64,000 bases of DNA from Isurus oxyrinchus (Eukaryota). The notes under the pieces were generated by a model, which was given only the letters and a program-made list of their open reading frames with translations, did no database searches and was not told the DNA's origin. The stretch lies in assembly GCA_026770705.1 (NCBI GenBank), contig JANJGN010000140.1, positions 62,001 to 126,000 on the forward strand, given 5' to 3'. Positions 10,866 to 43,057 of the stretch are shown piece by piece (position 1 is the stretch's first letter; each line of letters begins with the position of its first letter). Both the position numbers and the translations under genes were made by a program.

Positions 10866-13514
10866 CACAAATGGCTTCACGATGTGAGAAACTCTCAGGG
10901 GAGATCCAATCCAGCTGCCCTGGGAGCCAGCAGTGCCTTTTGCATTGACGGTGATCGTAGTACTTTAACTCTTTGCAACAGGCTTATTCCAGGCAACCTG
11001 TGGAGACCTCAGAGGGATAATGTCGCCTGCTCCATACCATTGCATCAAGGCGTTCACAGATGTAATGTTCTGAAGGGCTGGAAATAACATGGACAGCCAT
11101 GCACCTTTACAAACAGGAAAGATTTACACTTGGTCAATGTGCAGCTGGTGTGCCACCATTAGGTGGCGTCCAGCGATCATGAAAGGCACTATATTCGTGC
11201 TTATATTTTTGTTATGAATTATAGGCACAAAATAAAAAGTGTCGGATTGAGCCAATGAGCCATAGCTTTCCAGACTGACCCTAAATCCAAGCAGTGGGCG
11301 AAGCCGCTCAGCACCCTGGAATAAAAGAACTATCCATTCTTCAAAACCTCCCCTCCCACCCTCACTGCTGCTTCAACATAGCCCTGCATTTTATTTCCAT
11401 TGGAGACCATGTCTCCATTGATAATGGATTAGACCCTGTCCAATTGTCCTACTTAGGTTACCCTGGAGCATGACGCCTGTTGCCATGGTTTTCACACCTC
11501 AGCACTGTTGTAATTGACGTGAACTGACAGAGCTTCTGGTCTACAAGGCAGGTGCAGTTTCATGTCAGGGATGTTGCTAAGACTCTCAATGAGTACTTTC
11601 GATCAGCACTTTCGGTCAGCTGCACACTCGGGATGGGCGAAGTGAACAATTTCTCCAAGCTGTGAAAAACAAACTATCTTCTCTCAAAATCTGTTTGCCT
11701 TCATAACCGCAGGTAATTCTAGCAGGGTAAAATTGGGATGAGTTGTGGCCGATACCAAGGGAAACAATACCTGCTGACGTGAGCATTACTATGGGCGCAA
11801 GCTAAAGCCACTCCCGCTCCTTCCATCTTAATTTCTGAAGGCAGCGACTATGTGAGCGAATCTCCATGACCCGGATCCCGAAATCAGGCTGAGAACGAGC
11901 AGATTAGATGCACACACGTTAAAACAAATAGATTCAAAAGACGTTGGGAAGGAGGGTGAATAGACAATGAGTTAGACCCACCAACATCAGCACCCGATTA
12001 CAAACTGTAATATCCACAGTAGTTCAGACAGTGGGAGAATAGAATTCTATTCGGCAGCAAAACATAGCGAGAAGTGAAATAATAATGAAGACCGGCGCTA
12101 GAGAGTTCCACAGATTGATTCCTGACTCTGTAACTCTCCGGGATGCCCGCGGTCAGATAAGTGATGTAATTACCCGTCCCACTGGATTTCTCGTTCATGA
12201 CAAACAGGGAACGCCGACAGAAATATTCCTGATATCAGAGCGGGCAAGGCGGGACAGGCAGAGAGAGCAAACAACGGAAGCTGTTGCTGGGCCGAGGCGA
12301 GACGGATGTAATACATATACAATCTGAAAGGATTTCTCGCGTCATCCTTGGCTTATATCAAAGCGTTTGGATGCTAATTCAATTGAAAGAATCCAGTCCC
12401 AGGAGACAGACTACAGTACTTGTGTCATGTAACAGTCGGCTGAACAAAAGACCAGGCGATAGAATAGTGGTAATGCTGCTGATGAGAGTAATACAGAGCA
12501 TTAATACTCTGGAGATATGAGTTCAAAGCGAAACAAAGATCATGGAAGTGTCACATGGTTATAAAACCGCACCTGGTTCACTAACCTGCCTCGGATAAGG
12601 AAATCCGTCACTTTTGCCCATGGGACGGCAAATTCACAGCAATGAGCTTGCTTCATTACTGCGCCCGGAAATTTCCTCGCAGGCCACTCATTTGAATCAA
12701 GCCACCACAGAAGAATAGGACTGTGTGTGCATCTACATCACAGACAAGACAGCTCACCATCACCTTCGCAATGACATGTCGCAATGCGCGCTTAATTTTG
12801 CCCATGCCGGCTGTGTTCAATTCTAAAGAATGAATTAAAAATTATTTCAATCACCACCCCATCCGAGTGCCCCAATGTAGCCGTATCGGGCAGTGGCTGT
12901 GTGGAAACGTACCCTACAGCAATATCCTCAATGGAAGTGTTGAAATAAAACTGGAGAACATTGATAAAACATATAAGAGCTCAAAATGCAATATCGAGAT
13001 ATCTTTCGTACACACAGGGAATAACGAATATGTTCTAATTACGTTCAGTGAGAGTTAGGGAGGAGTATCACCTGGACAAGTTTAAGGGAGCTCTTGGGGA
13101 AGAAGAGAGAGAGGGAGCCCCGGAGAATTGAGTTAAAACATGAAAAACCGACATGAAATAGATTGCTTCAAGTGCTTCATTTTCTACATTCTTGTTGTCA
13201 AGGAGAATAACCTTTTTCTTCGAAATGTGTTCACGTTTACCATTTTCGTGCATTGACAAACAACCGCCCCTTTGCAGCCTCTCGATAGCTTAATTTCCAC
13301 CATAGCTCTGCATAATCGGAAAGCCTGGAAACATTATATCTGTTCCTTCTCCATCTTGATAACGTCCAGTTGGACTCCATCGGATCAGGAAGGATTTCTT
13401 CCCCAATCCTGCACTGTAAATCCGAATCGATTCCCTCTGTAAGGATAGTGAGTGTAATCTAGGTCAAGGCGCTTCGAGTTACTCTCTGATCTCTCAAAAC
13501 CTGGCGTTCACGGC

Positions 13515-13686: not shown

Positions 13687-13799
13687 GTAAACGTGAAGGG
13701 AATACACTTCATCTTTTCTCTCTTTTCTCAGGCATGTTTTCAATCAGATTTCAATAAGCTATCGGTCTTAACTTTACTGTTTTAATACATCTTTTCCAG

Positions 13800-14108
13800 G
13801 CGGGACTCATGGAGATTCTGTCACTCAGCCACTCTCATCAGATGTTAAGACCGAAGGCGAAGAGGTGACTTTGAAATGTAACTATGATACTACAAGGAGC
13901 GGCTATAGGTTATACTGGTACCGGCAACACCCAGACACACAGCCCCAGTTTGTACTGTACAAGGATAATTCTGGCAATGAGAATAAAGCAGAATTTGCGA
14001 AAAGTCGTTTCTCTGTAGAGCTCCAGATCTCCACTAAATTCACCAGTTTAACCATCTCGAGTCTGCAGCTGACTGACGCCGCCGTCTATTACTGCGCTTT
14101 CTGGGACG
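13800..14108 (+). CDS. Intact TCR alpha/delta V exon
   Basis: ttttccag| GTHGDSVTQPLSSDVKTEGEEVTLKCNYDTTRSGYRLYWYRQHPDTQPQFVLYKDNSGNENKAEFAKSRFSVELQISTKFTSLTISSLQLTDAAVYYCAFWD; C23, W41 and C104 present, no stops. Confidence 0.95.
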
Positions 14109-20288: not shown

Positions 20289-20764
20289 ATGTGTTGTGTC
20301 GCCCCGTTAAAGCTATTATCCGTCATCCTGGCGATCCGAACAGGGAGGTACAGGACAGGTACCCAATAACCAAGAGTGAGTTTTTCATTATTCATCTCGT
20401 TTTTCCAGTTTTTCATACCCTGAATACTTCTGCAGGTCGATGTCTCTCGAACCGTGTCCTTCAATCTCCCGCTTCGAAAACAGTCCAGAGCGGGAATTCG
20501 CTGCAGATGGACTGCAGCTACGAGGTGTCCGACTTTTAGGCGATGCGTTGGTATAGACTGCAATACGGCCAGGGACTGCAGTGGATTATAAGGCGAGCAT
20601 AGATTGGCAAATAGAGACGCCGGCGATATGAACTGAAACTTTCCGAGTCGGAGAAACGCGGCAAACCGCTCATTGAAGGCACTGAGGACGCCAATGTCAC
20701 GGTTTATTAATGTGCGGCTGAGCCCCACACTGAGACAAAACCGGGCAGTCACTGTCCAAAAACC
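20289..20764 (+). pseudogene. TCR alpha-like V pseudogene
   Basis: Leader-like exon from ATG 20289. V exon 20436-20725 RVLQSPASKTVQSGNSLQMDCSYEVSDF*AMRWYRLQYGQGLQWII...TVY*CAAEP with four in-frame stops. CACACTG 20726-20732 + 23 + CCAAAAACC. Confidence 0.88.
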
Positions 20765-22210: not shown

Positions 22211-23817
22211 AGCACAACAGCAAACGGCAAAGACGAATTGAAGGGCCACATCAATACTAAGGGAACGGTTTCATTATCTTTGTGTCAAACAGCAGATGCC
22301 ATGACTGGGACATGTGAAAACATAGGCCCTGTCACCGAGCTCCAATACTCAGTGAACATCTCAGAGCTTCCAAGCGATTTTGGAGGTGGTAAAACAGAAT
22401 TGACGGAGCGAGTAACCACAGTTCAGAGATATCCAGGAAAATTCACAACCCTTTCATTCTGAAAGATGTTCAGAACGTGAATCTTCGCCATTTCTTCCTG
22501 AAAGACATAGGTAGAATATTTCGAAAGAAAGGAAGTAACCCTGGAAAACACGCTGACTCACCAAACCTGGATTCACTGTGCAATATCTATTCTCCTAATA
22601 ATCTGGATTTGTAAGTCTAATGATGACCACGGAATCATTGCCAGTTGCAGTGAATAAACCCATATGTTTCACTAATGTGCTTTAGGGAGGGAAATCTGCC
22701 GCCTTTACCTGGTCTGGCCTACATCTGACTCCAGGCCCACATTTATGTGGTTGGCTCTTAAATGCCCCTGAACAAGGGCAATTAGAGCAGGACAATAAAT
22801 GCTGGCCAACGTCCTACTAAGGAATAAAACAAATGTTAAAAATATCAATTTTTCCCCAGTGTCTCAGTGCGAAGAGTTTCTGCCCGTGCAGTGGCCAACG
22901 AACACGAGGCAATGGAATTGATAAAAGCTAATCAGCACAGCTCAGAGCCAGGTTAAACATAGCAAGGGTTCAATTCCAATCCCACACGATGCAATAATCG
23001 AATGCCGAGAACCATAAATGCTGCAAATCTGAAATAAAAGAACAGAACATTCTGGAAAAGTAAAGGATAGCTGGTTAGGATGCCTCTCAGTGGAGAGCTA
23101 ACGTTTCAGATTGATGAAATTTTATCCCAACTGGAAATGCTGGAAGTGACGTAAGTCTTCTTCAATGATTTGGTGGGATTTTGTGTGTTTCACTGTATGG
23201 GACCTGGTTAACTTTTGCAGCCAGTGTGGGGTCCATGGCGTAAGGTGTTGGCGGATGATAGTTCCCATGGATATTTAAAGAAAACCTTGTGATTTCGTTT
23301 TGCAAAACATCAGATGCCTTGTCTGGGGTCACAAGAACCAGGTAACATTCTCCGGAATACTGGGGTAAGAGCGGGACAGGGGGATTCTCTCGGTGTCCTG
23401 GGCCCACATTCCACCTTTAACAAACACCACCCAATGCAAACACATGCACCGACCTCCCAGTTTATCACTGTGGGGAAAGGAATGCAACAGCACAACTGGC
23501 AGAAAGAAAAGCTCCCCTCCCCCACCCCTGTACCCCAGAATATTGTGGGAGGGGCTTTCACATCCTGATCACAATCCAAATGTAGAGTCAGAAAATTGCA
23601 GCCTCCTTTTATAAACCTATCTCTTATTCACACAGCACTTAGCCACCTATCCGGGAATCATGCGACCCATCAATGATCTCAGCGAAACTGCCCTGTACAA
23701 ATAAACTCGATCCCCCGAAAATATTTCAGTCCAGCTCAGAGGTCCGGTTTCCCAGTGCACTCCAGGGCTGCAGTCTCCAGCTCCCCGTCAAATAAACCCT
23801 CAGTTCCAGGCAGCAGA

Positions 23818-23863
23818 ATGATGGGAATCTTTCTTGTTTTCACCCTGTGTGAATGTTTACCCC
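23818..23863 (+). CDS. NAR-TCR V leader exon (cassette 1)
   Basis: MMGIFLVFTLCECLP C|gtgagt, phase 1; aaataaa TATA-like element ~25 nt upstream. Confidence 0.85.
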
Positions 23864-24009
23864 GTGAGTACCGATCAAACAAACGACATTGTGTGGATTT
23901 AATAGTAAGCTGCCCGAGCCCATCCCAATTACAGACAATGTCTGGGGTTTAACCCCGTTCTGTGAATCTGCTCTGATGCTCCATTAAACTCTCTCTGTTT
24001 AATTTCCAG

Positions 24010-24299
24010 GCTATTTCAGTCAGTCATTGACACAGACCCCGGCAGCGGTGACCAGGAAGGAGTGTCAGTCTCTCACCATTACCTATGTTTTCTATGGTGG
24101 TTTTTACGCTCGACATTTGACGGGCGGGGATTTCTTCAGAAAAACCCAGACCGGGACAGAGCGGGAGCGGATCTCCAGCGGAGGAAGATTTGTTGAGTCG
24201 TTGAATAAAGCACAAAAGACATTTTCGCTGGAAATTCGGGATGTGAGAGTTGAAGACACCGCCACCTATTTCTGTAAAGCTCAGTACGAGTACGAAGAA
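24010..24299 (+). CDS. NAR-TCR V exon (IgNAR-like V lacking CDR2); open frame but probably defective
   Basis: SLTQTPAAVTRKECQSLTITYVFYGG...FFRKTQTGTERERISSGGRFVESLNKAQKTFSLEIRDVRVEDTATYFCKAQY resembles the VNAR framework (ERISIGGRYVE..SFSLRI.DLRVED..TY.CKA). Extra FR1 Cys at 24063; canonical Cys23 is TAT at 24084. Weak RSS CACGACG 24300-24306 + 22 + ATAAAAACT. Confidence 0.9.
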
Positions 24300-24665
24300 C
24301 ACGACGACGGGTCTCGGTTTCCCGCGATATAAAAACTCTCACTGCAGATTATTACAGAATCAAATAAAAAAACGGAGTTAATCTGCAGTTAAACCCCCCA
24401 CGGTTCCGCCTCACACCGCCTGCCCCACAGTCTAGTGTATAATGAGATTGGATTATTGCCGTTAACATCTTGAGTTTTATAAATGTCGAGTGTGTGCGGA
24501 TGGCGATGTCTTTGCCGGGATTGGTGTCAGTGAATGGGGATTGGGAATGACTAATCCCAGTTACAAACCTCTAACACCAGATGTGATCCTGGTCTAACAG
24601 CTGGAACCGGGAACCGCAGTCCCAGCTGTTTACCTAGTATCCCCACAGCGCACCAAGTACCCAGG

Positions 24666-24738
24666 GGATTTCATGCTGACTTGTAACATTGTGTGTTTGG
24701 ATGGGTAAGTCACAGTTGAAGAGACTTGAGCAAATATC
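24666..24738 (+). other. NAR-TCR D segment (24694-24710) flanked by 12/12 RSS
   Basis: GGATTTCAT + 12 + CATTGTG | TGTTTGGATGGGTAAGT | CACAGTT + 12 + GCAAATATC. Confidence 0.75.
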
Positions 24739-25054
24739 TCTCCACAATCACAGTATAAATTCTCCAGTCCCGGACAGTGAATTGTCGGGTTGATGTTATT
24801 GTTGCTATAATCTGGTTACATTTCATTGTAATTTCCACCATTCAGTTATCTTTCTTTAATCATTTTTCTCGGTTTATATGAAGAGAACATTTCGTTCCCG
24901 GGACCATTTACTCAGAGCTCAGGGCCTCACAAAGAACAGTTTGAACAGACAGAGACTTTAAAATATTGAATATTGTTTATTTATTTATATCCGCTGAATA
25001 ATTGGGCAGTTTCTACTGTCTGATGATGATTCCCCAGTAGTTTGAGTTGTCGGT

Positions 25055-25137
25055 GGTTGTTGTACCGGGGACACTGAGAGTGGTGTCACTGTGGTGGGTT
25101 ACTAAATATTATTCTGTGGATGGACCCAGGAAAGCTG
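25055..25137 (+). pseudogene. NAR-TCR J segment (25094-25137) with 23-RSS; 15-nt internal deletion
   Basis: GGTTGTTGT + 23 + CACTGTG; WVTKYYSVDGPRKA G|gtaata versus DYVDGSGTVVTVTA G|gtaag in the paralogous J at 40358-40410. Confidence 0.8.
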
Positions 25138-26029
25138 GTAATAACTCCAAACCTCGCCGGGTTACCGACTGTCCCTTGTAATGTTCACCGTCAGTTTATT
25201 ATTGATATCGGTTGGGTTTGGGGGGATGTGGGAGTTGACGGAATCTGGACCATTATTAGTTTAACGGGCACATTGGGGACAACATCAACATCTTGGACTC
25301 TCACACTTTGAATCGCTTTTAATGAGAGCAGATTGTCAGCAATCCGGACTCCACTCCCAGTGTTAATTGTGACCGAGGGAGCTCTGCCTGTCCCTTAGAG
25401 CTGGGAAGCGGGCTGACAGATCTCTCTCCTGGGCAGCAGTTTGCAGTCCGAGCTGCACAATGTGAATGAGGAACCGGGTGAATAAACTTAACATAACTGC
25501 GGCCAGTTCGGATACCTGACCCAGGAGTAAAACAAGCAAGTGATACAATGGACTTCAGATATAAGAGGTCCTGATGTGGGTCTACATGGAATTTTATTAT
25601 TGGATAATCAGTGACTGAAATTAGTGACAATGCCCCCGCCATTTGTTTCAATTGTCTTCAGAAAACCAATTACTTTCCTCCCTTTCTGACCTCAGACCGA
25701 AATGTGAAAGTTTGGAACTGCTGACACTTTATTATCTTGAATGTAGATGTTTGAGAGATGGGATTGCTGTAATTTTTCTGTATCCCTGATTACTGTTAAT
25801 GGAAACAACAAAATGCAGTGAGATAGTGAGGATAACGCATTAATCTTATAAAGGAGAACAAGAACATAGGGAACAATTATAAACTGGGGCCATGTTCATT
25901 TAGAACCAGCAAGAAATAGCTCAGCGAAAGGGGGAGAAGGATTGTATGACCTCTGGGCGCCTTCCAAAGTACAATCCGGCTACGTGGTGGGTGAGCTTTA
26001 TGGAGAGAAGGACTGAAATAGACTGAAAT

Positions 26030-26570
26030 GCTGTGTAAAGTTTTGGTCTCATTACTGAAGAGAGAACCATCTGCTTTGGAAGGAGTGCAACAAAGGCTCA
26101 CCAGACTGATTCCTGAGATGAAGAGGTTGTCCATTGTGAAATGATTGAGTAGTCTGGGCCTGTATTCCCTAGAGTTTAGGAGAATGAGAGGTGATCTAAT
26201 CAAAAAATATAATATTCTTCAGGGACCTTGACTGGGCAGATACTGGGTCGCAGTTTCTCCAGGCTGAGGAGTATAGAACTCAGGGTCACAGCTTCAGAAC
26301 AAAGGATCATCCATTAGAACTGAGAAACGGAAAATAATCTTGAGAAGAACTATTGTTGTGAACCTGTGGCATTCTGTAACTCAGAGAGCGGTGGGTGTTC
26401 AGTATCACCGTGTATACAAGGCAATATTCGACAGATGTTTGGATACTAACAGAATCAGGGGATATTGGGGGAATGTGGGAATGTGATGTTGAGGTTGAAA
26501 ATCAGCAACCATATTACTGAATGGCTGAGCAGGTTTGAAAGGAGATCTGGCGCCTCCTGCTTCTATTCGA
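26030..26570 (+). mobile_element. Old CR1 3' fragment in the J-to-supporting-V intron
   Basis: caaaggctcaccagactgattcctgag...gagtttaggagaatgagaggtgatct; a copy at the equivalent position in cassette 2 (38930-39430, -). Confidence 0.7.
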
Positions 26571-27984
26571 TGCTCTACTTTGATTTTCTACAGGCCTGAG
26601 AAAAGAAATCAGCAGCATTCCACATCTCTCTGGGAAGTTGAAGCCGGCTGGACCTTTTTTCTCTGGACAAAAGGGAAACACTGGGAAAATTAATAGAAAC
26701 CTTTCAAACAATGAGCGGTTTTAGTCTGGTGAAATTGTTTATTTGTGGCTGAGGCCAAAGCAATGGACCATCAAAATATTAACAGGACAAAGAAGAATAT
26801 TAAGACAAATAATTTTTAACAAAGACAAGTCAGAGTATGGAACTTGCTGTCCCAGGGAGTGCTTGCAGATATTACTGATATATTTACGGAACAGACCGAC
26901 CCAGGGAGCTGGATGGAAATGGTCAGTTAAGTTTCGGTGGGGATTAGGTTGGAATTGAGTCTATGCACAGGTTGAATGGCCCATTCCTCTTTTGCGTTCT
27001 TTTTCCTCCATAATGTTAAAATTGAGGGAAAACTCCGCCCAGTGAACCCGGGAAAGAATCAGTTAACGTACGGAAAGAATTGAAATTGTCAGAGAGCCGG
27101 AAGAGGCAGTTCCCAGTGAGTAACAGTAAAACCACTGCGGAAACTGAATAGACTGAACCCAACAGACAACTGAGAGAGTTTGGGACAAGTTCCCACGATT
27201 GCAAAAAGCGCAAACAGCACAAAGTAAATGTGAAAAAAGGAAATGTGAAATAAAATAAATAAAATTAAATTAATTGTAAATATTTCAAATGAACTGAACT
27301 GCAGAAGATTGGACCCTATTGATAAAACTTAGCGAAATAGAGCACCAGGCCGTGAGAAATGCCCGAGCACTTATAAACCGCAGGAAATGATTGACCTTTG
27401 GCCACTGATGTTTGGCTTTGGCCCAATTGGTGCTGATGATTCCCATCGGTTTTGTGTTGGGTCTTGCTGTGATGCCACACAGCTGTATTTCTCTCTAACA
27501 AACATTTTTTTTTTTGGAAATCGGTTGCCTCATTGATCATAAAATATTCCCTCGGGTTTGTCTCTCATTAGGGATAATACACACAGGGATGTAATTTTAT
27601 TCATAGAATTATCTGGCCCATCGTGTAGGCGCCGACGCTTTAGAAGTGCAAACCAATTGTTCCTACGGCCCATTAACTTTCTCCATCGCTCTATATTTTT
27701 ATTTACATTTCCAGTACAGATCCATTACCTGCTTCAAAGTTACAATGGAATCTGTTCCCACCACCAATTCAAACGGTGCATTCTTCATGAGGAGAATTCG
27801 CTATGGAAAAAAAATCACTTCATTCCCAACTTTATCATATTTTAATAACAGTGAATACGGTTCAAACAGGCTTCAAACGAATAAAATTACCACAAAAAGC
27901 AGAGCTATTCAAGCGATCGACAACTTCTCCTGGACAAACAGTGGATAAACAAAAAGATAATGTTCATTTTTTTTGATTCTCCAG

Positions 27985-28290
27985 ATTCCAGTTCCATGAT
28001 TTCCCGGGATCCGCTAGTACAAATCTCTGCTGCCTGTGACACCGTTACTTTAAACTGTGAATATTCAGGGTTCTGTCCATACACAGTACACTGGTATCGT
28101 CTGTCACCCGGACAGGCTCCGGAATATCTGCTTCAGAGACACACTTCAGGAGAGGAGAATAAAGAAAATGCCGTCGAGGGGAGAATTTCTGCTTCTATCG
28201 AATCCGTCGAGAAAATCAGCCGGTTAAAAATCTCCAAACTACAATGGAGCAACTCCGCTGTGTCTTACTGTGCATTGAGTCGGCGTGCAG
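27985..28290 (+). CDS. Leaderless supporting TCR-delta V of NAR-TCR (cassette 1)
   Basis: tctccag|AT is phase 1, matching the NAR-TCR J donor. DSSSMISRDP...VTLNCEYSGFCPYTVHWYRLSPGQAPEYLL...NSAVSYCALSRRA with CDR1 Cys at 28074; no leader found upstream. RSS CACAGTG 28291-28297 + 23 + AGAAAAGCC. Confidence 0.92.
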
Positions 28291-28703
28291 CACAGTGATA
28301 CAGAGCATGGAGAGAGCTGTAGAAAAGCCTGAACATGGTGGGATTACAGAAGGACCAACAGTAGCTGAATCTCCTTCAACGCTCGTGCAATAGCCTACGG
28401 GATGGTACCAACTGCTCTCAACACAGCCCCCCTCCCTCCTCCCCACCCCGTGATGTTAACCTGGGTCCACCCGACATCACCACCCCCACAGCCTCCCGGC
28501 CCTGGACCCTTACCCCCTTTCCCATTGTGTCAGTATCGCCCTGTTTTCTCCTCCTGGATATTCAGGGATTTGTACCCTCCCCAGTGCACCCAGGACCGCA
28601 TAATAAAGTCACGTCCCGTGTATTCACCGGCCTGATCCATCTCCCAGACAAGGGAGCAGCTTTGCCCAGAGATGTGGAGGGGGTGGGTAACATGGATCTT
28701 GTG

Positions 28704-28762
28704 ATCGGGTTTAACCGCGTGCAACATACGGAACAACGGGACCAGGTTGATTGTGGAAACCA
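28704..28762 (+). pseudogene. Possible degenerate TCR J segment
   Basis: TAC GGA [AC] AAC GGG ACC AGG TTG ATT GTG GAA ACC A|gtaatt gives YG(N)GTRLIVET if a 2-nt insertion is removed; only a weak heptamer (TCTTGTG 28697-28703). Confidence 0.4.
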
Positions 28763-29081
28763 GTAATTCATTGTGGATCACTCCACACCTTTTATTTATT
28801 TAATTTTCATTCTCTTTCCCTCCTCTGAACTGACTTAGATGTTAAGACACGGCGTTATTTCATGTGTCAGTGATGCAAACGGGATTTGGGGTGAGGAGCT
28901 GTCGTTGGGGGTCAGATGGGGGTGGGTGCGAGGGAGGGGGTGTTGATTGACTGGATCCATCCCAGAAAGTAGATGCCAACCCTTGTGCATCGCGATTCCA
29001 ATGGTCCCCCCCCCCACTCCCCCAAGGCTTTAACAGGCCTTTAATCACCAAGTCAGGCATTATTGAATGTGTGTCCGTGTA

Positions 29082-29115
<34 letters not shown>

Positions 29116-30150
29116 TGTCTGTCTGTCTGTCTGTCTGTCAGTGTGTGTATGCACTGGCGGGGGAAGTTTCACTTGAGCTGGGGGGTTGTGCACTGCACTG
29201 GTTAAGGGCTCCAGTCTCGAAATATTCGAAGCTTCAATGTCCCCAAAGTACACGGTCAGTCAGGGTTCGGTGTGGGGATCGTGGGATGGTACAACCTTGT
29301 CGGTGGGTACCATTAAGGACATAATAAATAGGAGCAGCATTGAGCAGTTCAATAAGATCATGACTGAGATTCGACCTCAATGTCCTCTTGGCCTGTCCCA
29401 ATATCATTGATCCCTTCAGCGCCACCTCCCAAAAAATCTATCCATCACCAAATGAAAATCCATCAGTCACCATTTTGAATATGGGCATCTGCTGAACATC
29501 CTGAACCCTCTGGGCTGGAGAATTGCAAAGGCCCCCAGCCCTCTGAGTGAAGGGATATCTCCTCAACTTAAGCCAAAATGGCCGACTTATTACCCTGAGA
29601 CGAGGACCAGAGTATTTAAAGTGCCATTTGAAGGTGTTAGTTGTTTTGTGTGTGTATGTGTGTGCCTGTGTCTGAATTCTAATGTTAAGGAGACTCCGTG
29701 AAATTAGAAGTCATGTTTATGTTGCATTGTGTAATGTGGCCCAAAACCCTATGCTCCATTAACCCAGGCAGCCATATATTGCATCAAATATCGCAGTGTC
29801 GAGGAACAGTTGCCGATGGTGGGGTGGGGGATGTACATTGTCTTTGCTTCCAATTCTACTGAAACCCCACTTGCAGCATATTTGTAATGCGTTGAGTATT
29901 TCGTTTGAAAGTAAAAAAGAGGATTCACCCAACCCTCTGCCTCGCTTGGATTTGTCAATTGGGAAATCGCGGCCATGATTTCTTATGGTGCGAAATTGAA
30001 GGAGAGCTGCGAATCATTTCCAAGATTGCAGGGTTTGAGGATTAACTGTTTAACCCAAGCAAATTGCAGAAAATAGCATTATGTGGTGGGACTTGGTGAA
30101 CTGGCCAGAAGAGTGCCGAAAGCCATTTGAAGTTTATTGGCGTGTCATTG

Positions 30151-30239
30151 AGTTTTCAGATGGAGTTTTGTCATTGTGTATTCGAGTGTTTTTAGACCAT
30201 TAATATTCGGAACAGGAACCAAACTGACCGAGGAACTTA
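30151..30239 (+). CDS. TCR J segment, delta-like (coding 30179-30239), with 12-RSS
   Basis: AGTTTTCAG + 12 + CATTGTG; YSSVFRPLIFGTGTKLTEEL A|gtgagt (FGxG motif, phase-1 donor). Confidence 0.88.
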
Positions 30240-30349
30240 GTGAGTATAACCTGTTGGTATCTATTTGAGAAGACTCATTCGGCAAACAGAAATTATTGCA
30301 AAAAGGGGGGGCAGGGGGCGGTGAATTTCAAACTGCCGTCCAGAATGAT

Positions 30350-31220
30350 GAGCCTGGGGAATTTATTTGCGGGGTGGGGTGGGGGGGGGTGGTAATTTGT
30401 GGAGGGGAGAATTTGGGCCTGGGGGGTAAATTTGCGGGGGGTAAATTTGCACGGTGTGGAATTTGCAGAGTGACAGAATCTGCAGGGGGAATTTACACAG
30501 GTGGAAAATTGCGGGGAGAGAGAATTTGCACGGGGGGGGAAACTTGCACATGGGGGAAATTTGCATGGCTTGAATTTGTGGGGGTGGAATTTGCGCAGGA
30601 GGGAATTTGCCGGGCGGGAAGACATTTGTACAAGGAGAAATTTAAGGTGGGGGAAATTTTCGCAGCGGAAAATTTGTGAGGGGGGAGTTTGCACAGAGGG
30701 AAAATCGCACGAGCGAATTTGCAGTGGGGAGATAATTTGGAGGGATAAATTTGCAGGGGCAAACTTGCAAGTTGGGAAATTTGCAGGGGGAAATTTTTCA
30801 GGGGGAGTAAATTTGCATGGGGGAGAAATTTGCGGGAGGTGGAAATTTGCAAAGGGCCAATTTGCGGGGAGAGGATTTTTCATGGGGGGAAACTGTGGGG
30901 CTGGAAAGGAGAATAGAACCTACAGGGGCTGAATTTGCGGAGGGGAATTTGTGGGGAAGTAAGTTTGCACAGTTTGTAATTTGCACAGAGGGGAATGTGC
31001 GGGGGGAGGTCGAATTTGTGGATGTGGTATTTGCACATGAGGGAATTTGCACAGGGTGGAAGTTGCAGGTGGGGGAAATTTGCTCATGGAGGATTTTGCC
31101 GGGGGGGAGGGTGGATTTGTGGGGTGGAAAGAACCTGCAAGGGGGATTTTGCACTGGTGGAAAACTGCGGGGAGGGGGACTTTGCAAGGGCGAGAATTTG
31201 CAGGGGCGTAAATCTGTGGG
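30350..31220. repeat. Degenerate G-rich tandem repeat, core GGGGGAAATTTGCA
   Basis: Dozens of ~15-20-nt variants of gggg(g)aaatttgc(a/g); strongly G-skewed on the + strand. Confidence 0.9.
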
Positions 31221-31415
31221 AGAGAAAGAAAAAATAGAGATAGAAGAAAGAGAAAAAGAGACATAAAAGAAGAGACAGAGAAAGAAGAAAGAGAAAGAGA
31301 GAGACAGAGAGAAAGGGAGAGAGAGACAGAGAGAAAGAAAGAGAGAGACAGAGGAAAAGAGACAGAGAGAGAAGATGCTCAATTGAAAGACAGAGAAAGA
31401 AGCAGAAAGGCAGAG
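31221..31415. repeat. (AG)-rich polypurine tract
   Basis: agagaaagaaaaaatagagatagaagaaagagaaaaagag... Confidence 0.85.
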
Positions 31416-31553
31416 AAAACTATAGACATGTCCTGAAATAGACGTGCATCTGATGAATGAGGGATTGTGGTGTGACCAGCAAGAGGGTTAGGGTGTGACA
31501 AACAGAATAATAAATTAGGTGGGTTGTCGGATGGATAAGTTGTTGGATGAACA

Positions 31554-31693
31554 NNNNNNNNNNNNNNNNNNNNNNNNNNNNNNNNNNNNNNNNNNNNNNN
31601 NNNNNNNNNNNNNNNNNNNNNNNNNNNNNNNNNNNNNNNNNNNNNNNNNNNNNNNNNNNNNNNNNNNNNNNNNNNNNNNNNNNNNNNNNNNNN
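31554..31693. other. Assembly gap (N run) within a (GATG)n-like tract
   Basis: Run of N, flanked by degenerate (GGAT)n extending to ~31945. Confidence 1.
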
Positions 31694-32099
31694 ATGGATG
31701 CATGCACAGATGGACGTATGGGCGGATGGACTTATGGATGGGTGGGCGGGTGGACAGATGGACTGAAGGAAGGAGGGACAGGTGGATGGGCGGATGGATG
31801 GAAGGACGGAGAGGAGGATGGATGGATGGGTGGATGAATGAAAGGGGAGATGGATAGAAGGGCGGCCTGATGCATTAATGGATGGCTGGATGTGCGGGCG
31901 GATGCAAAGGGGTGAAAGTGAATGACGGCTGGATAGATGGATGGTCCTCATCAATTGTTCATTTTAATTTAGATGAAGCTTACAACTGCTTTCCTTAAAC
32001 TTCGGTACTTGGGCCAGTGATGTATGCATAATAATTATTTGTAAACCGTAATCCAATAAGCATATTAATGTAATAACTTATCCTTGGTATAGTTGGTTC

Positions 32100-33054: not shown

Positions 33055-33398
33055 ATCTGTGATGCTCAAATATAATTAAGCAACCTGCATCATCAGTATT
33101 ATGTATAGTGGAAGGACATATGGTGTTGTCCTGTTCATACTCCACGGACAGCCGCCGATATGATCTGTTCTAGTACAGACAAAGAACGGGGGAGGCGCCG
33201 GTGCTTTTAATCAAAATGAATTCTGAGGGAGGGCAGGAAGCAGGGCGTGTTGGAGGCCGAGTCTATTCAATACCCCGAGTATATGACCGTTTTTTCAGCT
33301 TACCCCTGACAGATGTTGAGCTGAGTGCTAATGGGATTTACTATTGTGTGCTGAATATTCGCAGTGATACAAACTAATACAGGCCCTGTACGGAAACT
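33055..33398 (+). pseudogene. TCR alpha/delta V pseudogene
   Basis: IKQPASSV...MVLSCSYSTDSRRYDLF*YRQRTGEAPVLLI...DVELSANGIYYCVLNI (Trp41 to TAG at 33171). CGCAGTG 33360-33366 + 23 + ACGGAAACT; leader not located. Confidence 0.88.
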
Positions 33399-35867
33399 AT
33401 CGGTGGGTTGCCATATAACCTCAATGATGGGAGTTCAGTGTGTGAACTCTGAATCTTCGCCTCTGAAAGAACCAGTAACTTGCGATTGGAAACAATGAAA
33501 GTAGAGCCTGTTATAGGGAAAGCGAAAGTCAAGGAAAGTAGAAAGAAAGAGAAAAAGTGAGAGACAGAGGGAGAGAAAGAGAGGAAAATATGCCGAGACA
33601 CTGAAAGATACAGAGGATGGAGACAAAGATTGACGCAGAGAGCAGAAAGTCTGTGCCTGAGAGAGAGAAAGAGAGAGGGAGGGTGAGACTGCGAGAGACA
33701 ACGGAGGGAGGCACAGGCAAAGCCAGACATTTAAATGGAGAAGGAGAAAGCGATTGACAAAGCGTGAGAGGGGCAGACAAAGGGACAGATATAGAAAGAT
33801 ATAGAGGCAGAAAGAAACAGACAGACAAGGAGAGAGAGAGTCCGCAGCTTATTCTATAAAACCCTCAGGTTCAGTTATTGATCTCCAGCTAATTGTGCTT
33901 TAAGTTTGTCCCATTGTGTGATTTCAATGTGACTAAATCCGGTTCTACTGATCAACGGACATCGAGCTGTCGGCAACCGCACTGCAGAAACTGCTCGTTT
34001 TACTGTGATGTTTGAAATAAGGAAACTGAACAGTGAAAACGGTTAAAAGCTGCACGTTTCTCAGGCACTGGGGTTAGAAGGTTAGAAAAGTGTGTTATTG
34101 AGAGCGGCAGTTTCTAGCATTCCCCCTCACCTCCTTTTATTTATTAGTTGTTGTTATTGAACTATGAGAAAATGGGGAGATGTAACACAGAAATAGAAGG
34201 GGTTCATACACCCGCCCATTTTATGTCATTGCTTTGTTAAACACTACTGTATTTAATGTTTTTAATCAATTGCCTTCAATTAAATCCCATTTGTCTTCAA
34301 GCACCAATTTTCCAAGATTGCCTTTTAAACCCCTCAACTCATCCCTCATTGTCACACACTCTGCCAAAATGTCTTTGTTTACATAAATTGCTCGTTATTT
34401 CCCTGTCAGTCCAACATTCTCTCTTTCTGTGTATTTGAATCTCCCCCTCTCTGCATCTCTCTCCATCGGAAAAACCTATCTCTGCATCTGAAGACACTAT
34501 ATTCCTATATAGGAACAGGAGGAGGCCATTCAGCCCCTCGAGTCTGCTCGACATTTCCTAAGAGAATCTTTGATCTGCCCAAGAACTTCAGTACCTTACC
34601 TCCATTTTCCTTAATCAACAAAAGTGGGAGCAGCACTGGTAAAGAAACTCGCAGAAATGGAGTTCAAACGCACATGAGCATTCATGTATTCAATTTTATG
34701 TTAATTTTCTCAATCACTGGACCATCCTGCTTCACTGGAATTACCTGCCCAGCGTTCAATCAACTAGATGATTAGTTGGTTTCAAAACTTATTCTACCCC
34801 TAACCCCATCTCAAAGCATTACTACGTTATGGTCAGCAATGCCCAGATGTTCTTCTGGCTTTACTTCTCACCCTAATTTGTTTCACTCCCCGTTACCTTG
34901 CTGTTCTTCGTTTTTTGCATTTTGCTTTATAAAGACAACAGTGCACCCTGTGGGAACTCTATTCCCTTAGCCCCTTTACATACTTCTGGTGAAGTAATAC
35001 TAGGTAGTGCACGCACTATTATTAATATTCTGTTTACTATATTCCTTAATTTGTCTGCATATTTCTTTCTTCAACTCCCTTCAAGACGCAAATCAATTCA
35101 GAGATAGAGATATGGAAATAAAGAGCTACAGAGTGACACAAAGACACTCAAAGAGAGCGAGAAAAATGGAAAAGGAGAGAGAGAGAGACACCGAGAGAGA
35201 GAAGGTCCAAATACTGAGTTTTAATATAACAGTTAACACTGCGCTCAGGTTGTGAATTCAGTCCCATCTTCCGGCTCTGATTTGCAATAGAGAAAGAAAA
35301 AAAGCATGCATTTATAAAGCGCCTTTCATGACATCAGAAGTTTACAAAACACTTAACAGTCAAAAAAGGCTCTAGAGTGTCTTTATGTGGGAAACATGAC
35401 AGGCAATTTACACACGGAAAGCTTCCATAAACAACAAGGTGAGAATGACCTGGTGATCTACTTCTGTGATGTTGATTTGGGGGCGGGGGTGGTGTTGGTT
35501 GGGTAGGAGGGGGGGGATGAAAATTGATATACAACCTGTCAGTCAGTCATCGAAGCTACCATTTCCACTCATGCCTCGCAGAGATGTAAATTCCTGCGCA
35601 TGTTTCAGATGGTTCCCTCATGTAACTCGACTGTTCACGCGGAGGGTGTGTTGTGTCCCATACTATGTGGTCCAGGATTTATGAAGTTACTGTTGTGGGC
35701 CTGAGACTCTGTTGTTATTGTGTTTCTTATTTTGATAACATGTTGCCTTACCTGTTTGACACCGATATTCATGACCATTCAACCCACTGAGGAAATGGGG
35801 CCCTTGTTTCAGGATCCACCGGGCATCATGGTGAGTTATGGAGGCAGTGTAATCCCCACCATGTTCA

Positions 35868-36206
35868 TGTATTTGTACAGATGTCTCCATGCTCTGTATC
35901 ACCGCGCTATGCGTCGACTCAGTGCACAGTAATACACAGCGGAGTCACTCAGTTGTGGTTTGGAGATCTTTAACTGGCTACTTTTCTCGGCCGAATTGAT
36001 AGAAGCAGAAATTCTCCCCCTGGCAGCGTTTTCTTTCTTCTCCTCTCCTGAAGTGTGTCGCTCAAGCAGGTATTCCTGTCCTGGAGATTGACAGTACCAG
36101 TGTACTGTGTACTGACAGAACCCTGAGTATTCACAGTTTAAAGTAACGGGGTCACCGGCAGCAGAGGCTTGGAAATGCGGACTCTGGGATACCAGAGAAC
36201 TGGAAT
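35868..36206 (-). CDS. Leaderless supporting TCR-delta V (cassette 2), exon 35907-36206, with damaged RSS
   Basis: DSSSLVSQSP...VTLNCEYSGFCQYTVHWYCQSPGQEYLL...SDSAVYYCALSRRI; open frame, 6-nt FR2 deletion versus copy 1. Heptamer CGCGGTG (35900-35906) + 23 + ACAAATACA. Confidence 0.9.
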
Positions 36207-39200
36207 CTGTAGGGTCAAAAATAAACATTATTTGTCGGTGTAACCACTGTTTGCCCGGGGGAATTTGTTAATAGCTCTTGATTTTGCGGTTTTCTTCACT
36301 TGGTGCCTGTTCGAACTGTATTCACGGTTATTAAATGTGGTCAAGATGATACATGAGGATGATAATTTATTTTGCAGAGCAAGTTATTCACATCTGGAAT
36401 GCACGGTGAAAATGGGTGATAGGAGCAGATTCAACAGTAACTTTCAAAAGGATGATGGATCTGTGCTGGAACAGGGATAAATGCATGTCTACGGGGAAAA
36501 TGTCTGGTTAACGGGGACAATTGGATTGCACTTTTAAAGGGGCAGCCAATGCGCAAGTGCCTGAATGTCATCCTTCCGTGTTGGATGTTTCTGTGATGTA
36601 TATTAAATTTCTGTTTGTATTTTCTTTGGTGAGAGACAAACCCGAAGGAATGTCTTATTATCAATGACGTAATCAATTACCAAAAATAGTTAATCGGTAG
36701 CGACACAGCTGCGTTGCATCACTGCACACAGCAAGATCCAACAAAAAGCGATGAGCTTAATGATCCGATTGGGCCAAACTGATAGTGAACATCAATGGTC
36801 AAAGGTCAATTATTTACTGCAGTTTAACACTGCTCTGGAGTTTCAATCTGCCGTTCCTTCCATTTCCCTATTTTCATCCATCAACAGGGTCTAATTTATT
36901 CCATTTCCATTTAACTTGACATCTTTACATTCAGTTCCCCTTCATTTTTACATTTCCTTTGTGCTGTTCGCGCTTCTTACAATCGTGGGAACTTGTCCCA
37001 AAGTCTCTCAGTTGTCGGTTTGTTTCAGTCTGTTCAGTTTCCACAGTGGTTTTACTGTTACTTACTGGGAACTGCTTCTTCCGGCTCTCTGACAATTTAA
37101 GTTCTTTCCGCCCATTGACTGATTCTGTCCCGGGTGCTCTGGGCGGAGATTTCACTAGGTTTTACATTGTACAGGTTCTGCAGAAGATGAAAACGCTATT
37201 CGGTCCAACTGAGTAATGGTGAAATGATGATTCCAGCAAGCAATGTTTGATTTCCAGGTCTGGATAATTCAGAGTTTCCAGTTCCAGTGATAAAACATGA
37301 AGCCACACTCAGACGGACAATGAAATGGGTGTGGACACTGTGTTTGGGACATGGTTTAAAGTTCACACTCACTGCCTTGGTGAAATCTTGTCATTGTGTA
37401 TAAACTGCCCTGGATCAAACAACACGTTCAGTTGAAATAAGCCTTGCTCCTGGAAACTGAAGGGGAGTAGGACATGTGGCTGCTGAATAATCCAGGCAGC
37501 TACCCAAAGGGCAGAAAATGGCCTAGGAACGACTTCAGGAGCACAGGCCTGACACGGTTTCGGCCGAACGTACATCACTCAAACGTGGTCGATTGTTGAA
37601 TCGACCTTTGAGTAGCTCCCGATGAGCTGCCGCTGATCCCCGATGTGCAATCGGAGACATAAACCTCATCTGATTCATCGGAAAAGAAAAGAAAGATCTA
37701 CAAAGACCTTTCTGCTTCATACACAAGTTTTGCACGTTAAATATTGTCCAAATTCTTTCCGATTTTGAATACTACTGCCCTGAAACAGCACAGAACAGCG
37801 CATGACATAAACATGTTTTGCCTCAGATCTACCACAAATACAATTTGTATTTTAAAACACATTTAACCAAATGAGATGTCCCTTCAGCAGGTAGTGGCAG
37901 TGATCTGCGTGCAACATGAATTCTGAGAGGCCGATGTGGCTGATCACACGCGTCATCGTCTGCAATGTGGGAACACTGATACAAATTGCTATCATTATTA
38001 CTAATACTCAGATTGTAGTAGCTTAAATTTAGGAGACCAAGGTTCTGTAAAAGTAATCGTACGGTGAAGGATTAATTGAATGTTTTTCAATCAGTATTTG
38101 TTTGCAAAAAAACCCATAATTTCTTCTATCAATAGGTTTCATTTTTCTCCTTTACATGTATTTTCATATATTTACATTTAGTTTCATTTTATTTTTCCAT
38201 TTCCTTTGTACTGTTTGCACATCTTGCATGGGAAGGTAGCAATCGTGGGAACTTGTCCTAAATTCTTTCAGTTGTCGGTTGGTTTCAGTCTGTTCAGTTT
38301 CTGCAGTGGTTTTACAGTTACTTACTGGGAACTGCCTCGTCTGCCTTTCGGACAATTGCAAATTTCTTCCGCCCATTGACTGACTGACGGGGCTGATTGG
38401 AGTTTTCCCTAAGTTTTACTTTACACAGAATCTGCCTGAAGAGGAATAATCCATTCTGCTCAAATGATTTATCCCTGTGTATTTACTGCAGACCAGCCCC
38501 CATCTGCCTGAAATCTAATTGTCAATTTCTAGTCAGCTCCCTGTGCCAGTCTGTTCCGTTCTCCCTTCTGTATTTTCAAGTATTCCCATAATTGTATCAA
38601 TACTATTTGCTCCAACCACTCCCTGGGCAGCAAGTTCCACATTTTGACCTGCCTGTTTTTACACATCTTCTTCATCGTGTCTTTATTTGTTCTGTTTTTG
38701 ACTATCTTCTGTTAATGGCACTAGCTTCACCCACAAATAAACGGCTATTCCACAAATACTCCAATGAACCCGTCCATTGCTTAAACGATTTCTATGTATT
38801 CTCCTCCTATTTCTCTGTTCTCCAGATACAAGAGACCCGGCCTGTTCAACCTCTGCACAAAGAGGTGGATTGTTCCTGATTTCTTTTCTCAGAGGTGTAA
38901 CAGATCAAAGCAGTTAATATAACAAACAGAAGCACGAGCGACCATGTTACCTTTCAAAACTTTTCCGCCATTCAGTAATAGCCTGACTCATTCTCGATTT
39001 CAACATCGCTTTGGCGCAATGTCCCCATATCCGTTGATTCTTTTAGCATCCCAAAATTCATTGAACACTTCCTTTAATACACTCAACTACAGCTCTCTGA
39101 GGTAGAGAATGTCACAGATTCACAACAATGATTTCACTGAATAAATTTCTCTTCTTCTCATTTCTCATGGCCGAATCCTTACTCTGAAACTGTGACCCGT

Positions 39201-40357
39201 AGTTATAGACTTAACACCCTGGGGAAACACCCACCGAGAATCTATACTGTCCTGGAAGTTAAATGTTCCAATGAAATTACATGTCATTCCTCTAAACTCT
39301 TGGGAACATAGACCCAGCCTACTCAACCTCCTCTTACAGGACAATCCCTTTATCTCACGAATCAGACTGATGAACCTTTGTTGCACTAGCTCCAAGACAA
39401 GGAGGTCCTTCCTTAAGTAAAGAGATCATAACTTTACACAACATTCCAAACTGGAGTCCATTTCAGTCATTCCTCCATGCACCTCACCAACTAACATGGG
39501 CTCGGATTGTAATTTGAATGGGCCAGAGACCCTCCAATCCTTCTCTCCCTTGCGATTAATTATTTCTTGCTGCTTCGAAATGAACATTCCCCCAGATTGT
39601 AAATGTTTCCTAAGGTCCCTGTTCTCCTTTATAAGATTAATACACAATCCTCAGTCTCTCAGTGCGCTGTGCTGTTTTAATTAACAGTAATCAGGGACAC
39701 AGATAAATTACAGCAATCCCATTTCTCAAACATTTACATTCAATATAGAGAAATGTCTGCAATTCCAAACCTGCACATCTGACAGCGGAAAAGGAGGAAA
39801 GTGATTGGTTATATGATGGCAACTGAGAGAAGTGGCGGGGTCAATGTCACTAATTTTAGTCACTGGTTGCCCAATCATAAAATTCCATCTGGACCCACAT
39901 CAGGGTCTTATATCTGAAGTCCCTTGGGTCACTCTCCCATTTCTCTCCCGGGTCAGGTATTGAACGAGCCGCTGCAGGTATCTGAACTGGCCATAGTTGT
40001 GTTGAGTTTATTCACTCGGTACCTCATTCACATTGCTCAGGTCGGACTGCAATCTGCTGCCCAGTAGAGAGATCTGTGACCTCGCTCCCGGGCTCTAACG
40101 GACAGACAGAGAGCCCTCGGTCACAGTTAACACCGGGAGTGGAGTCCGGATTGTCGACAATCTGCGCTCATTAAAAACGATTCAGAGTGTGAGAGTCCGT
40201 GATGTTGATGTTGTCCCCGATGTGCCCATTAAACCAATAATGGTCCAGATTCTGTCAACTCCCACATCTCACCCAAACTCCACTGATATCAATAATAAAC
40301 TGACGGTGAACATTACCCGAGACAGGCTGTAACCTGGCGGTGTTTGGAGTCACTTAC

Positions 40358-40449
40358 CGGCTGTGACAGTCACCACCGTCCCGGATCCATCCACATAATC
40401 TTATTTTCAGCACAGTGATCCCGCTCTCAGTCTCTCCGGTACAACAATC
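40358..40449 (-). other. NAR-TCR J segment (coding 40358-40410) with 23-RSS (cassette 2)
   Basis: GATTGTTGT + 23 + CACTGTG; ...DYVDGSGTVVTVTA G|gtaagt. Two in-frame stops in the first 10 nt would have to be trimmed. Confidence 0.85.
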
Positions 40450-40762
40450 ATTGACACCTCAAACTGCAGGGAAATCATCATCAGACAGTAGAAACTGCCC
40501 AGTTATTGAGTGGATTAAAATAAGTGTAAAATATTCAATGTTTCAAAGCTTCTGTCGGTTCAAACTGTTCTTTGTGAGGCCCTGAGCTCTGAGTAAATGG
40601 CCCCGGGAAGGAGATGTTTGCTTCATATAAACCGAGAAATTATCAAAGAAAGATAACTGAATGGTGGAAATTACAAGAAATATAACCAGATTACAGTGGT
40701 AATAACATCAACCCGACAATTTCCTATCCGGGCCCAGAGAATTTAAACAGTGATCGTACAGA

Positions 40763-41273
40763 GATATTTGCTCCGGTCTGCCCCACTCTGACTGTACCGC
40801 ATGCTGTACATATACAGAGCTTTACAGTAATAGGTGGTGGTGTTTCCAACTCTCAGATCCCTAATTTCCAGCGAAAATGTATTTTCTGCTTTATTCACCG
40901 ACACAACAAATCTCCCCTTGCTGGAGATCCGCTCCCGGTCTGGGTTTGTCTGAAGAAATCCCCACCCGTCAAAGGATGAGAGAAAAAGCCACCATAGAAA
41001 ACGCAGGTGATGGTGAGAGACTGACACTCCTTCCTGGTCACCGCTGCCGGGGTCTGTACCACTGACTGACTGAAAGACCCTGGAAATTAAACAGAGAGAG
41101 TTTAATGGACCATCAGAGCCGAACCACAGAGCGGGGTCAAAACCCCGGACATTGTCTGGAATTGGGATGGACTCGGGCAGCTTTATATTAAACAAACACA
41201 ATGTCGGTTTGTTTGATCGGAACTCACGGGGTAAACGGACACACAGGGTGAAAAGAAAGAGAACTCCAATCGT
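40763..41273 (-). pseudogene. NAR-TCR V pseudogene fused to D (VD), followed by 12-RSS (cassette 2)
   Basis: Leader 41228-41273 has ATG ATG mutated to ACG ATT. Exon 40791-41079 SVVQTPAAVTRKECQSLTITCVFYGG..., 10-nt frameshifting deletion in FR2, ...TYYCKALYMYSMRYS, then CAGAGTG + 12 + GCAAATATC. Confidence 0.9.
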
Positions 41274-42588
41274 TCTGCTGCCTGGAGCTGAGGGTTTATA
41301 TGACGGGGCGCTGGAGACTGTAGACCCGGACTGCACTGGGAGACCGGACCTCAGAGCTGGACCTAAATATTTAAGTGGGTGCTGAGTTGATTTGCACAGG
41401 ACAGTTCCGCTCTGATCATTGATGGACCGCACGGTTCCCGGGTCGCTGGCTAAGTCTGTGACTAAGAGACAGGTTTATAAAAGGAGACTGCAATTTTTTG
41501 ACTCTTCATTTGGATTGTGATCCGGATGTGAAAAGTCCTCCTGCAATACTCTGGGGTACAGAGGTGGGGGAGGGGAGCTTTTCTTTCTGCCAGTTACGCT
41601 GCCGCCTTCAAATCCCCGCAATAATGAACTGGGAGGTCGGTGCGTGTGTTTGTACCGGGTGGTGTTTGAGAGATGGCACTTCCCGTCAGTCCCTCAGCCT
41701 GACCAGTAAAGCCAATGAGTTCGAGGGGCTGAACGGTGACCCGGCACTACACCAAGGAGGCAGGAACACCCGGGAGACTTTAATCCAACGAACCTTCAGT
41801 TAATCCCACACAAATGGGTTTGCAAGCCAGCATTACCTGGCGCATTCATATGCAGCACTTTAGTGCGACATCTGTCACTTCATCAGCTGCAACAAGGGGC
41901 TTTGGACACAAATCTAAATATCCACTCAAACACAAATGACATGTCTGTGAAACATACAAATGCAGCACAAAGGAGCCACCCTCAGTCATCGAAACACTTG
42001 TGGATTTTATTTTGATCCATCATCTGGTCCAACAAATTTGCCTCATATTTCCTTTCCATTCCCGTGCAGTTTTTCTCTACAGCGCTGTCCCCATGGCCTC
42101 TGATCACGATGAAACTACATTTATTGATTGACTTTAAGTCCGATATAAATGCGAAAACTCCAAAGCAACTTTCACGACGCCTGGAGGTGTTTAGGCGTCA
42201 GTGCTTGCTCACCGATTTGTCTTATTCTGTCTTCACTCCCAATTTAACGTATTTATTTCCACGTGTTTTACTGCGGTGGGAGTGTTTACTTCGAGGAGAG
42301 ATTTACCCAGCAGAGAGACATCAAGGCAAAGGGACAGACAAGCTAAGAAGGTCAGAGCGAGGGAGGGGGAACCACCCAGTGAATTAAACTATCCGCAGCT
42401 CACATTCATTGGTGCGTAGCTGTCATCAGCTCGGACAGACAAGTGAATCTTCTCCTTGGGAAACGCCCCTCTCTGCCTCAATAAGTGGAGCCCGATCCTG
42501 TTCTGGGTTTCACTTTAATATCAGACTAGAGGGACCAACATATTAAGATGAACCTGTGATTTTTTTGTCGAGCTCGAAACCAGATACC

Positions 42589-43057
42589 ATGAGCTCACCA
42601 TGTCCCTTACTCCCAATAATTGCCTTGCTGCCTGGTAAGTCTATGTCTACATAGTCACTGTGTTTACGGGGGTTGTATTTCCTCGCCGGCTTTGAACCAT
42701 TCTGTATATGTGTTACAGGGTCGAATGGCACAGATTCAATGTCCCAGGATCCGTCTGCATTAATGATAATGGAAGGACAGAGCATAATACTGGGCTGCAG
42801 TTACTCGCCAGCCGGCCCTGTCACAACTCTGTTCTGGTATGCCCAGTATCCCGGGGAAGCTGCGAGACATTTACTGAAGCTTGGGGAATGAAGAAAGGCT
42901 TCCAAGCTAACCAGACAGATTTTCTGGTTATTTTCACAAAGGAAATATAGCGTCTCCTTTAAATATCGCCGGGGAACTTCTCTCCGAAAGCGCCGTGTAT
43001 TTCTGTGCCCTGGAGCTCACAGTGCTGCGGAGATATTGCCGATCCCGTGCTGAAACC
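42589..43057 (+). pseudogene. TCR alpha/delta V pseudogene
   Basis: Leader 42589-42634 MSSPCPLLPIIALLP|gtaag. Exon 42719-43017 DSMSQDPSAL...ILGCSYS...LFWYAQYPGEA, frameshift and stop, PDRFSG...ESAVYFCALE. CACAGTG 43018-43024 + 24 + GCTGAAACC. Confidence 0.9.

Follow-up and report, generated by a model that had tools for sequence, protein, structure and literature searches.

The 64,000-nucleotide stretch of DNA analysed here (the window) contains a NAR-TCR cassette, cassette 1, that is followed by J segments of its own. Cassette and Js together probably represent a duplicated NAR-TCR and delta-J unit, in a copy that is decayed and C-less. The full account that we favour, in which a duplicated V-D-J-V-(D)-J-J(-C) unit was formed by a germline RAG join and survives here as a fossil, seems to us evenly balanced between right and wrong.

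The two NAR-TCR cassettes and their surroundings

The window consists of a TCR alpha/delta V array from a shark, in which two NAR-TCR cassettes are oriented in opposite directions; IgM-type C exons lie at its far end on the minus strand. In the parts of the literature cited here, NAR-TCR is a doubly rearranging TCR-delta of cartilaginous fish (PMC1845163, PMC6795676, PMC12227049). As in the window, it is interspersed with TCR alpha/delta V segments and IgM clusters, and the great white shark has this same mix (Table S1 of PMC12227049). Further alpha/delta-type V segments, mostly broken, lie at 4863-5203, 8476-8790, 11563-11895 (minus strand), 13781-14108, 20396-20725, 33075-33359 and 42712-43017; that at 13781-14108 is open with a near-consensus RSS. 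A V-like remnant at 1072-1360, with a 22-spacer RSS at 1320, is found just ahead of the window's first gap, and the IgM-type C exons with a secretory tail (61540-63940, minus strand) stand next to the TCR V array. The segments of cassette 1 and of the region behind it are as follows.

23821..23863, plus strand: NAR V leader exon, from its sequence and a match to homolog leaders; GT donor at 23864
24010..24299, plus strand: NAR V exon, open; Tyr in place of the first canonical Cys; decayed RSS heptamer at 24300
24694..24710, plus strand: NAR D with a 12-RSS on either side (sites -24693 and +24711)
25094..25137, plus strand: NAR J, from alignment to the cassette-2 J; 23-RSS 25055-25093, donor GTAATA
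27985..28290, plus strand: supporting TCR-delta V, open; CDR1 Cys present; DxAxYxC motif with Asn for Asp and Ser for Tyr
28291..28350, plus strand: RSS ladder unit (23-RSS 28291-28329 and linker), stopping 2 nt before the expected start of the next heptamer
28351..28356, plus strand: candidate D-delta remnant or N bases, from the position between ladder end and second RSS
28357..28395, plus strand: second, decayed 23-RSS, candidate 3' RSS of D-delta; first heptamer base lost
28704..28762, plus strand: J-A, a dead J of GNGTRLIVEP type; GT donor at 28763
30151..30245, plus strand: J-B (12-RSS 30151-30178, coding 30179-30239, phase-1 GTGAGT donor at 30240)
30421..31836, no strand: low-complexity block (G-rich minisatellite, GA repeats, a gap of 140 N at 31554-31693, GGAT repeats) with no C exon

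Cassette 1 has the order V-D-J-V-J, all within a few kilobases. Like described NAR-TCRs, it has a leadered NAR V with the extra Cys (in the a-b loop) and without the Trp of WYRK, a D and a J with their RSSs between the two Vs (the J present, although deleted in part), and a supporting V-delta with the CDR1 Cys that is spliced after the NAR J. By these defining features cassette 1 is a NAR-TCR cassette, and it is a pseudogene. Against 44 gene models from sharks and rays the supporting V has 60-81% identity, the lamniform ones being closest; a tree of supporting Vs (79 columns; without window V P0001 and P0037) is mostly unresolved.

Canonical Ig-fold residues are not kept in either V domain of cassette 1. 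The first Cys of the NAR V, retained in all 40 motif matches among 44 homolog proteins, is Tyr here, and the Asp and Tyr retained in 44 of 44 supporting-V homologs are Asn and Ser; the homolog set for these counts consists of annotated gene models and is biased towards intact genes. Compared with the cassette-2 J, the NAR J carries a net in-frame deletion of 15 nt, or five codons, in which the TVVTV core is gone. J-B ends in EEL, in place of the VEP or VVP of most shark delta-type Js. Judged by their sequence, cassette 1 and its Js are probably not functional.

Cassette 2 (35848-41668, minus strand) is an inverted paralog of 23421-28348 (plus strand), with which it shares 73-85% identity. The CAC is gone from the heptamer of its supporting V, and its ladder consists of one unit. 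The homology between the cassettes stops at 28348/35848, and no private J is found behind cassette 2, a check that the preliminary description had suggested for other cassettes. At 40798-40813 (minus strand) the NAR V of cassette 2 runs directly into D-like sequence and a 12-RSS, without the interval from NAR V RSS to D RSS that is present in cassette 1. This arrangement looks like a germline V-D join.

The J segments and the junction at 28350

The J with a 12-RSS, an FGTG core and a GTGAGT donor that had been described behind the supporting V is borne out by our analysis. Its coding part (30179-30239) reads YSSVFRPLIFGTGTKLTEEL, and none of 200 block-wise dinucleotide shuffles gave a J-B-like site. 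J-B is the only one of the five [FW]GxG[TS] cores in the window to have both a donor and an RSS; against the consensus used throughout for RSS scoring, the heptamer has one mismatch and the nonamer four. It lies about 1.9 kb from the supporting V, with J-A in between. J-A, previously put forward as a possible dead J, is a real but dead J: the GTRLIVE core and the GT donor are retained, the FG is lost and the RSS is decayed. ATTTGCA occurs 27 times in the window, and 13 of these motifs, all on the plus strand, fall in the minisatellite directly after J-B (30445-31202); we take this motif to resemble the Ig octamer.

The features of J-B (12-RSS, FGxG and phase-1 GT donor) form a set that is also common to TRAJ, and alpha and delta Js give its peptide similar scores, in a mixed ranking that by itself does not separate them. 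Three observations favour delta. J-A and J-B are similar to the GNGTRLIVEP and GKGTKLTVEP types that precede C-delta in shark models; P-x-I-F-G occurs in three of 66 listed J cores, all three in chains read as delta (their C tails being, we presume, delta); and a candidate D RSS lies upstream. The Js are thus likely to be delta rather than alpha, although the matter is not settled.

The 23-RSS of the supporting V (28291-28329) matches the consensus with no mismatch in the heptamer and two in the nonamer, and an in-frame stop lies inside this heptamer. It is the first of what appears elsewhere as a ladder: tandem RSS units of 60-61 bp are found behind supporting Vs in both organisms of the contig comparison described below (runs X1, X7, X11 and X18). 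In all four runs, position 28350 of other supporting-V copies continues back to 28290/28291 with one to three letters between, which amounts to one more 60-61 bp unit. The peptides read through the ladder in P0032, P0036, P0039 and P0048, with whale shark, sawfish and Mustelus among them, agree. The junction in the window coincides with an RSS border, give or take a few bases lost or gained: it is 2 nt short of the next ladder heptamer and 6 nt before the second RSS.

The second RSS is 302 bp ahead of the first J. A forward 23-RSS shortly before a J is how the 3' side of D-delta looks in TRD. The preliminary description had recognized no D between the supporting V and J-B. As far as an intact D is concerned this stands, as a relaxed RSS scan (16 plus-strand and 24 minus-strand rows) returned none, but the candidate remnant with its decayed 23-RSS (28351-28395) suggests that 'no D' is probably wrong. 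It is by their position that the six bases are a candidate D-delta remnant.

How far the second RSS stands out was assessed in two ways, both post hoc. Its loose criterion is satisfied by 29 sites in the window, which gives a chance of about 0.005 of one falling within 20 nt of the junction. Ten of the 29 have a GT spacer end, eight of these ten in recognized segments, and with this end required the chance is 0.002. In a weight matrix made from nine assigned RSSs the second RSS ranks 12th of 127,232 sites and third among non-training sites; its score of 11.2 lies in the uppermost background tail, far below the 22-30 of the assigned RSSs. Base 28387, the first of the nonamer, is the consensus A in all of the organism-B contigs listed (4, 3 and 2), so that the nonamer is one base nearer to consensus in organism B; one contig of X1 has the A as well. 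The possibility that the second RSS is a diverged ladder unit was considered and rejected, since its spacer is identical to that of the ladder unit at only 4 of 23 positions and its alignment score is equalled or exceeded in 908 of 2000 shuffles.

A germline RAG join would explain this arrangement as follows. The second RSS of the ladder, a 23-RSS, would have recombined with the 12-RSS on the 5' side of D-delta in a duplicated copy. The join would have deleted the intervening DNA and left six bases and the 3' 23-RSS of the D ahead of the first J. It would have been unproductive, because the retained first heptamer contains the in-frame stop. The first ladder RSS would have stayed free and, being 12/23-compatible with the Js, could have allowed the supporting V to join a J directly, D-less (23/12). 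The C end would later have been lost, or is unassembled, and the unit would have decayed. The break 2 nt from the predicted cut site, with the second RSS 6 nt further on, fits such a join, and what looks like a germline V-D join in cassette 2 would count in the same direction. Ladders may, however, simply end or break, as in cassette 2, whose ladder comprises one unit and is followed by no visible RSS.

The same adjacency could have arisen by ordinary segmental rearrangement. A fragment of a TRD or TRA J block would then have been copied beside the cassette by a process independent of RAG, the neighbourhood of V and J would be accidental and there would never have been a working cluster. The region is rich in duplications, inversions and pseudogenes, the second RSS is weak, and the J-B region is about as divergent from organism B as are non-coding flanks (15 differences in 535-592 bp), so that no extra constraint on J-B is visible at that resolution. 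Such a rearrangement would nevertheless have had to break no more than 2 nt from an RSS border and to leave a 23-RSS in the right orientation before the Js, and models in which a supporting V, a J and C-delta are combined are found in Mustelus, Cetorhinus and Heptranchias. We regard this explanation as unlikely, though one to be taken seriously.

Inheritance of the J block and the search for C-delta

Part of the stretch is present in 20 of 24 listed runs, from seven studies and two organisms. Contigs were aligned for four of these, X1 (organism A, perhaps the source species and not counted as independent) and X7, X11 and X18 (organism B, three studies), and the comparison reached position 30300, i.e. 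through J-B. The junction at 28350 is crossed by organism-B contigs from two studies (X7, 28144-28425; X18, 28267-28425) and is present in the germline DNA of several individuals. Overlapping organism-B contigs tile 28144-29069, J-A included, and contigs of both organisms tile 29155-30300. The J-B region is found in organism B at about 97% identity, with the 15 differences and no gaps, and also at about 88%, with an X7 piece at 85%. As X1 shares indels with the 88% copy, the duplication of the J block likely predates the split between the two organisms. In X1 the contig depth is 47-106 for window-type contigs and about 10 for the 88% paralog, a weak hint of further copies, depth not being equal to copy number.

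Two ways in which the V-J arrangement could have proved spurious had been foreseen, a chimeric assembly and an unused, solitary J fragment. Given the organism-B junction contigs and the diverged paralogs of the J block (about 97%, 88% and 85%), the assembly is not chimeric at the V-to-J junction and the J is not a solitary fragment. An assembly chimera elsewhere between V and J would be consistent with the lack of any single listed contig that spans the whole stretch and with the TG repeat at 29070-29154, between J-A and J-B, that none of the contigs listed bridges. It is highly improbable in view of the contigs that cross 28350 in two studies and tile both sides of the repeat. We give even less credence to the idea that J-B is kept as a decoy or deleting element, a 12-RSS target that absorbs upstream Vs in sterile joins. 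J-B does keep the CAC of its heptamer, and upstream, at 13.8-14.1 kb, there is an open V whose 23-RSS is near consensus, but the J-B region has no sign of constraint and its nonamer has four mismatches, both of which would speak against a conserved target.

No C-delta was found in the window by tblastn with five C-delta queries, a search that the preliminary description had proposed; among the hits listed were minus-strand IgM exons and noise, and the best, an IgM exon on the minus strand, was weak (E of 9e-4). For the remaining 33.7 kb, the hits listed likewise included no C on the plus strand, and no C gene of its own follows the J within the window. Beyond the low-complexity block the V array restarts at 33075. 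It had been suggested that a C exon might be hidden in the gap at 31554-31693. To place a multi-exon C gene in 140 bases would require an error in the size of the gap or in the join, and GGAT-type sequence flanks the gap on either side. The loss of C rests on one assembly only and depends on it, since the TG repeat is unbridged and the contig comparison ended at 30300.

These results bear on a reading in which the copy still works as a TCR-mu-like unit, with the supporting V joining J-B directly and the product spliced to a private C-delta concealed by the gap or by a misjoin. The V and J-B are open, co-oriented and 12/23-compatible, with a good donor; the gap lies in low-complexity DNA, C-delta is multi-copy in Mustelus, and the depth in X1 hints at further copies (again with depth not taken as copy number). 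Set against this, the NAR V is without its first Cys, the NAR J is five codons short and the supporting V no longer carries its invariant Asp and Tyr. The supporting V is leaderless, so that its expression requires the NAR leader, as stated in the portion of PMC1845163 cited here. There is no plus-strand C in the 33.7 kb that remain, and the similar GGAT-type sequence on both sides suits a small gap. A working unit is therefore improbable. Of the two origins proposed in the preliminary description, the remnant of a duplicated D-J-C-delta block, without C, fits best. The TCR-mu-like cluster has support at the level of the family, from Mustelus models, and not for this copy, in which all segments are damaged and which has no C-delta in the window.

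With a C-delta region as query, 13 proteins were retrieved, eight of them from Mustelus asterias, and a cluster look-up added a ninth. The nine Mustelus models (P0028, P0029, P0031, P0034, P0047-P0050 and P0061) are on nine scaffolds and contain eight distinct C-delta sequences in two groups (129-159 of 159 residues identical), more than two haplotypes can account for. Six of the nine include a supporting V and one starts in ladder read-through; one has a locus number consecutive to that of a NAR V-V model, on a scaffold of equal length. These are automatic models, known as models only, which can span long distances and whose scaffolds are mostly unplaced. The C regions are called delta because catshark P0051, to which the Mustelus C is 58% identical, has the same NCBI name as an entry labelled IgWVTCRD in Table S1 of PMC12227049. 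Two C-delta models of Heptranchias share one scaffold, and a model that combines supporting V, Js and C occurs once in Cetorhinus and once in Heptranchias. The Cetorhinus model (P0003) runs from a supporting V and a PLIFG J through three V-like exons to another J and C-delta; a J may lie inside the V array in Cetorhinus as well, if the model, which can span long distances, is correct. With nine modelled Mustelus C-delta genes on nine scaffolds, six of them spliced to supporting Vs in the models, a cluster-type NAR-TCR likely exists.

Relation to known receptor loci

Three features set the copy apart from described NAR-TCRs, namely the private Js directly behind the supporting V, the candidate consumed D and the damage in every segment. 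Its layout resembles that of platypus TCR-mu, in which, according to the sections cited of PMC3457774 and PMC7615758, the cluster is V-D-J-V-J-C and the second V joins J without D. The V-D-J-V-J order is shared, and the second V here could also join a J D-less. Unlike in platypus, the Vs are of NAR and TCR-delta type and not VH-derived, the window has no C and the copy is defective. The VH-related Vs and C-mu by which the TRM family is recognized are absent, and the window copy is not a member of that family; its origin is independent.

For shark Ig genes, the part of PMC2193156 cited here documents RAG-type joins in the germline. The join proposed for the window would likewise be inherited, being common to individuals and to two organisms. 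It differs in belonging to a TCR locus and in using a spare ladder RSS, which would leave the V still able to rearrange, whereas the joins of shark Ig genes fix the V(D)J exon. Duplicated D-J-C-delta blocks are described for frogs and birds in the cited part of PMC3457774. The window has in common with them an additional delta J block at a distance from the main block, but here the Js are attached to a NAR-TCR cassette and not to VH-delta, and C was not found. Private Js, cluster-type NAR-TCR and tandem RSSs in sharks were met in none of the titles and abstracts searched, with most subscription papers outside the search.

As the copy is dead, its own importance is limited. It may nevertheless belong to a wider pattern, in which sharks repeatedly built self-contained, TCR-mu-like NAR-TCR clusters by means of ladder RSSs. 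Spare ladder RSSs would let a germline RAG join pull a D-J-C-delta block beside a cassette, with the D consumed; the window would be a fossil with a readable scar and Mustelus an expanded set with C. We put this forward tentatively, as a possibility that we rate below even. In the passages cited from PMC12227049 and PMC6795676, shark TCR genes are described as translocons and Ig genes alone as miniclusters. The private Js, and the multiple C-delta genes tied to supporting Vs in the Mustelus models, suggest that the separation is not strict. NAR-TCR and TCR-mu, convergent in protein shape, may then be convergent in gene layout as well. Should the junction be a germline RAG joint, it would offer a way, open to testing, in which a translocon becomes a cluster, and the RSS ladder would have a consequence.
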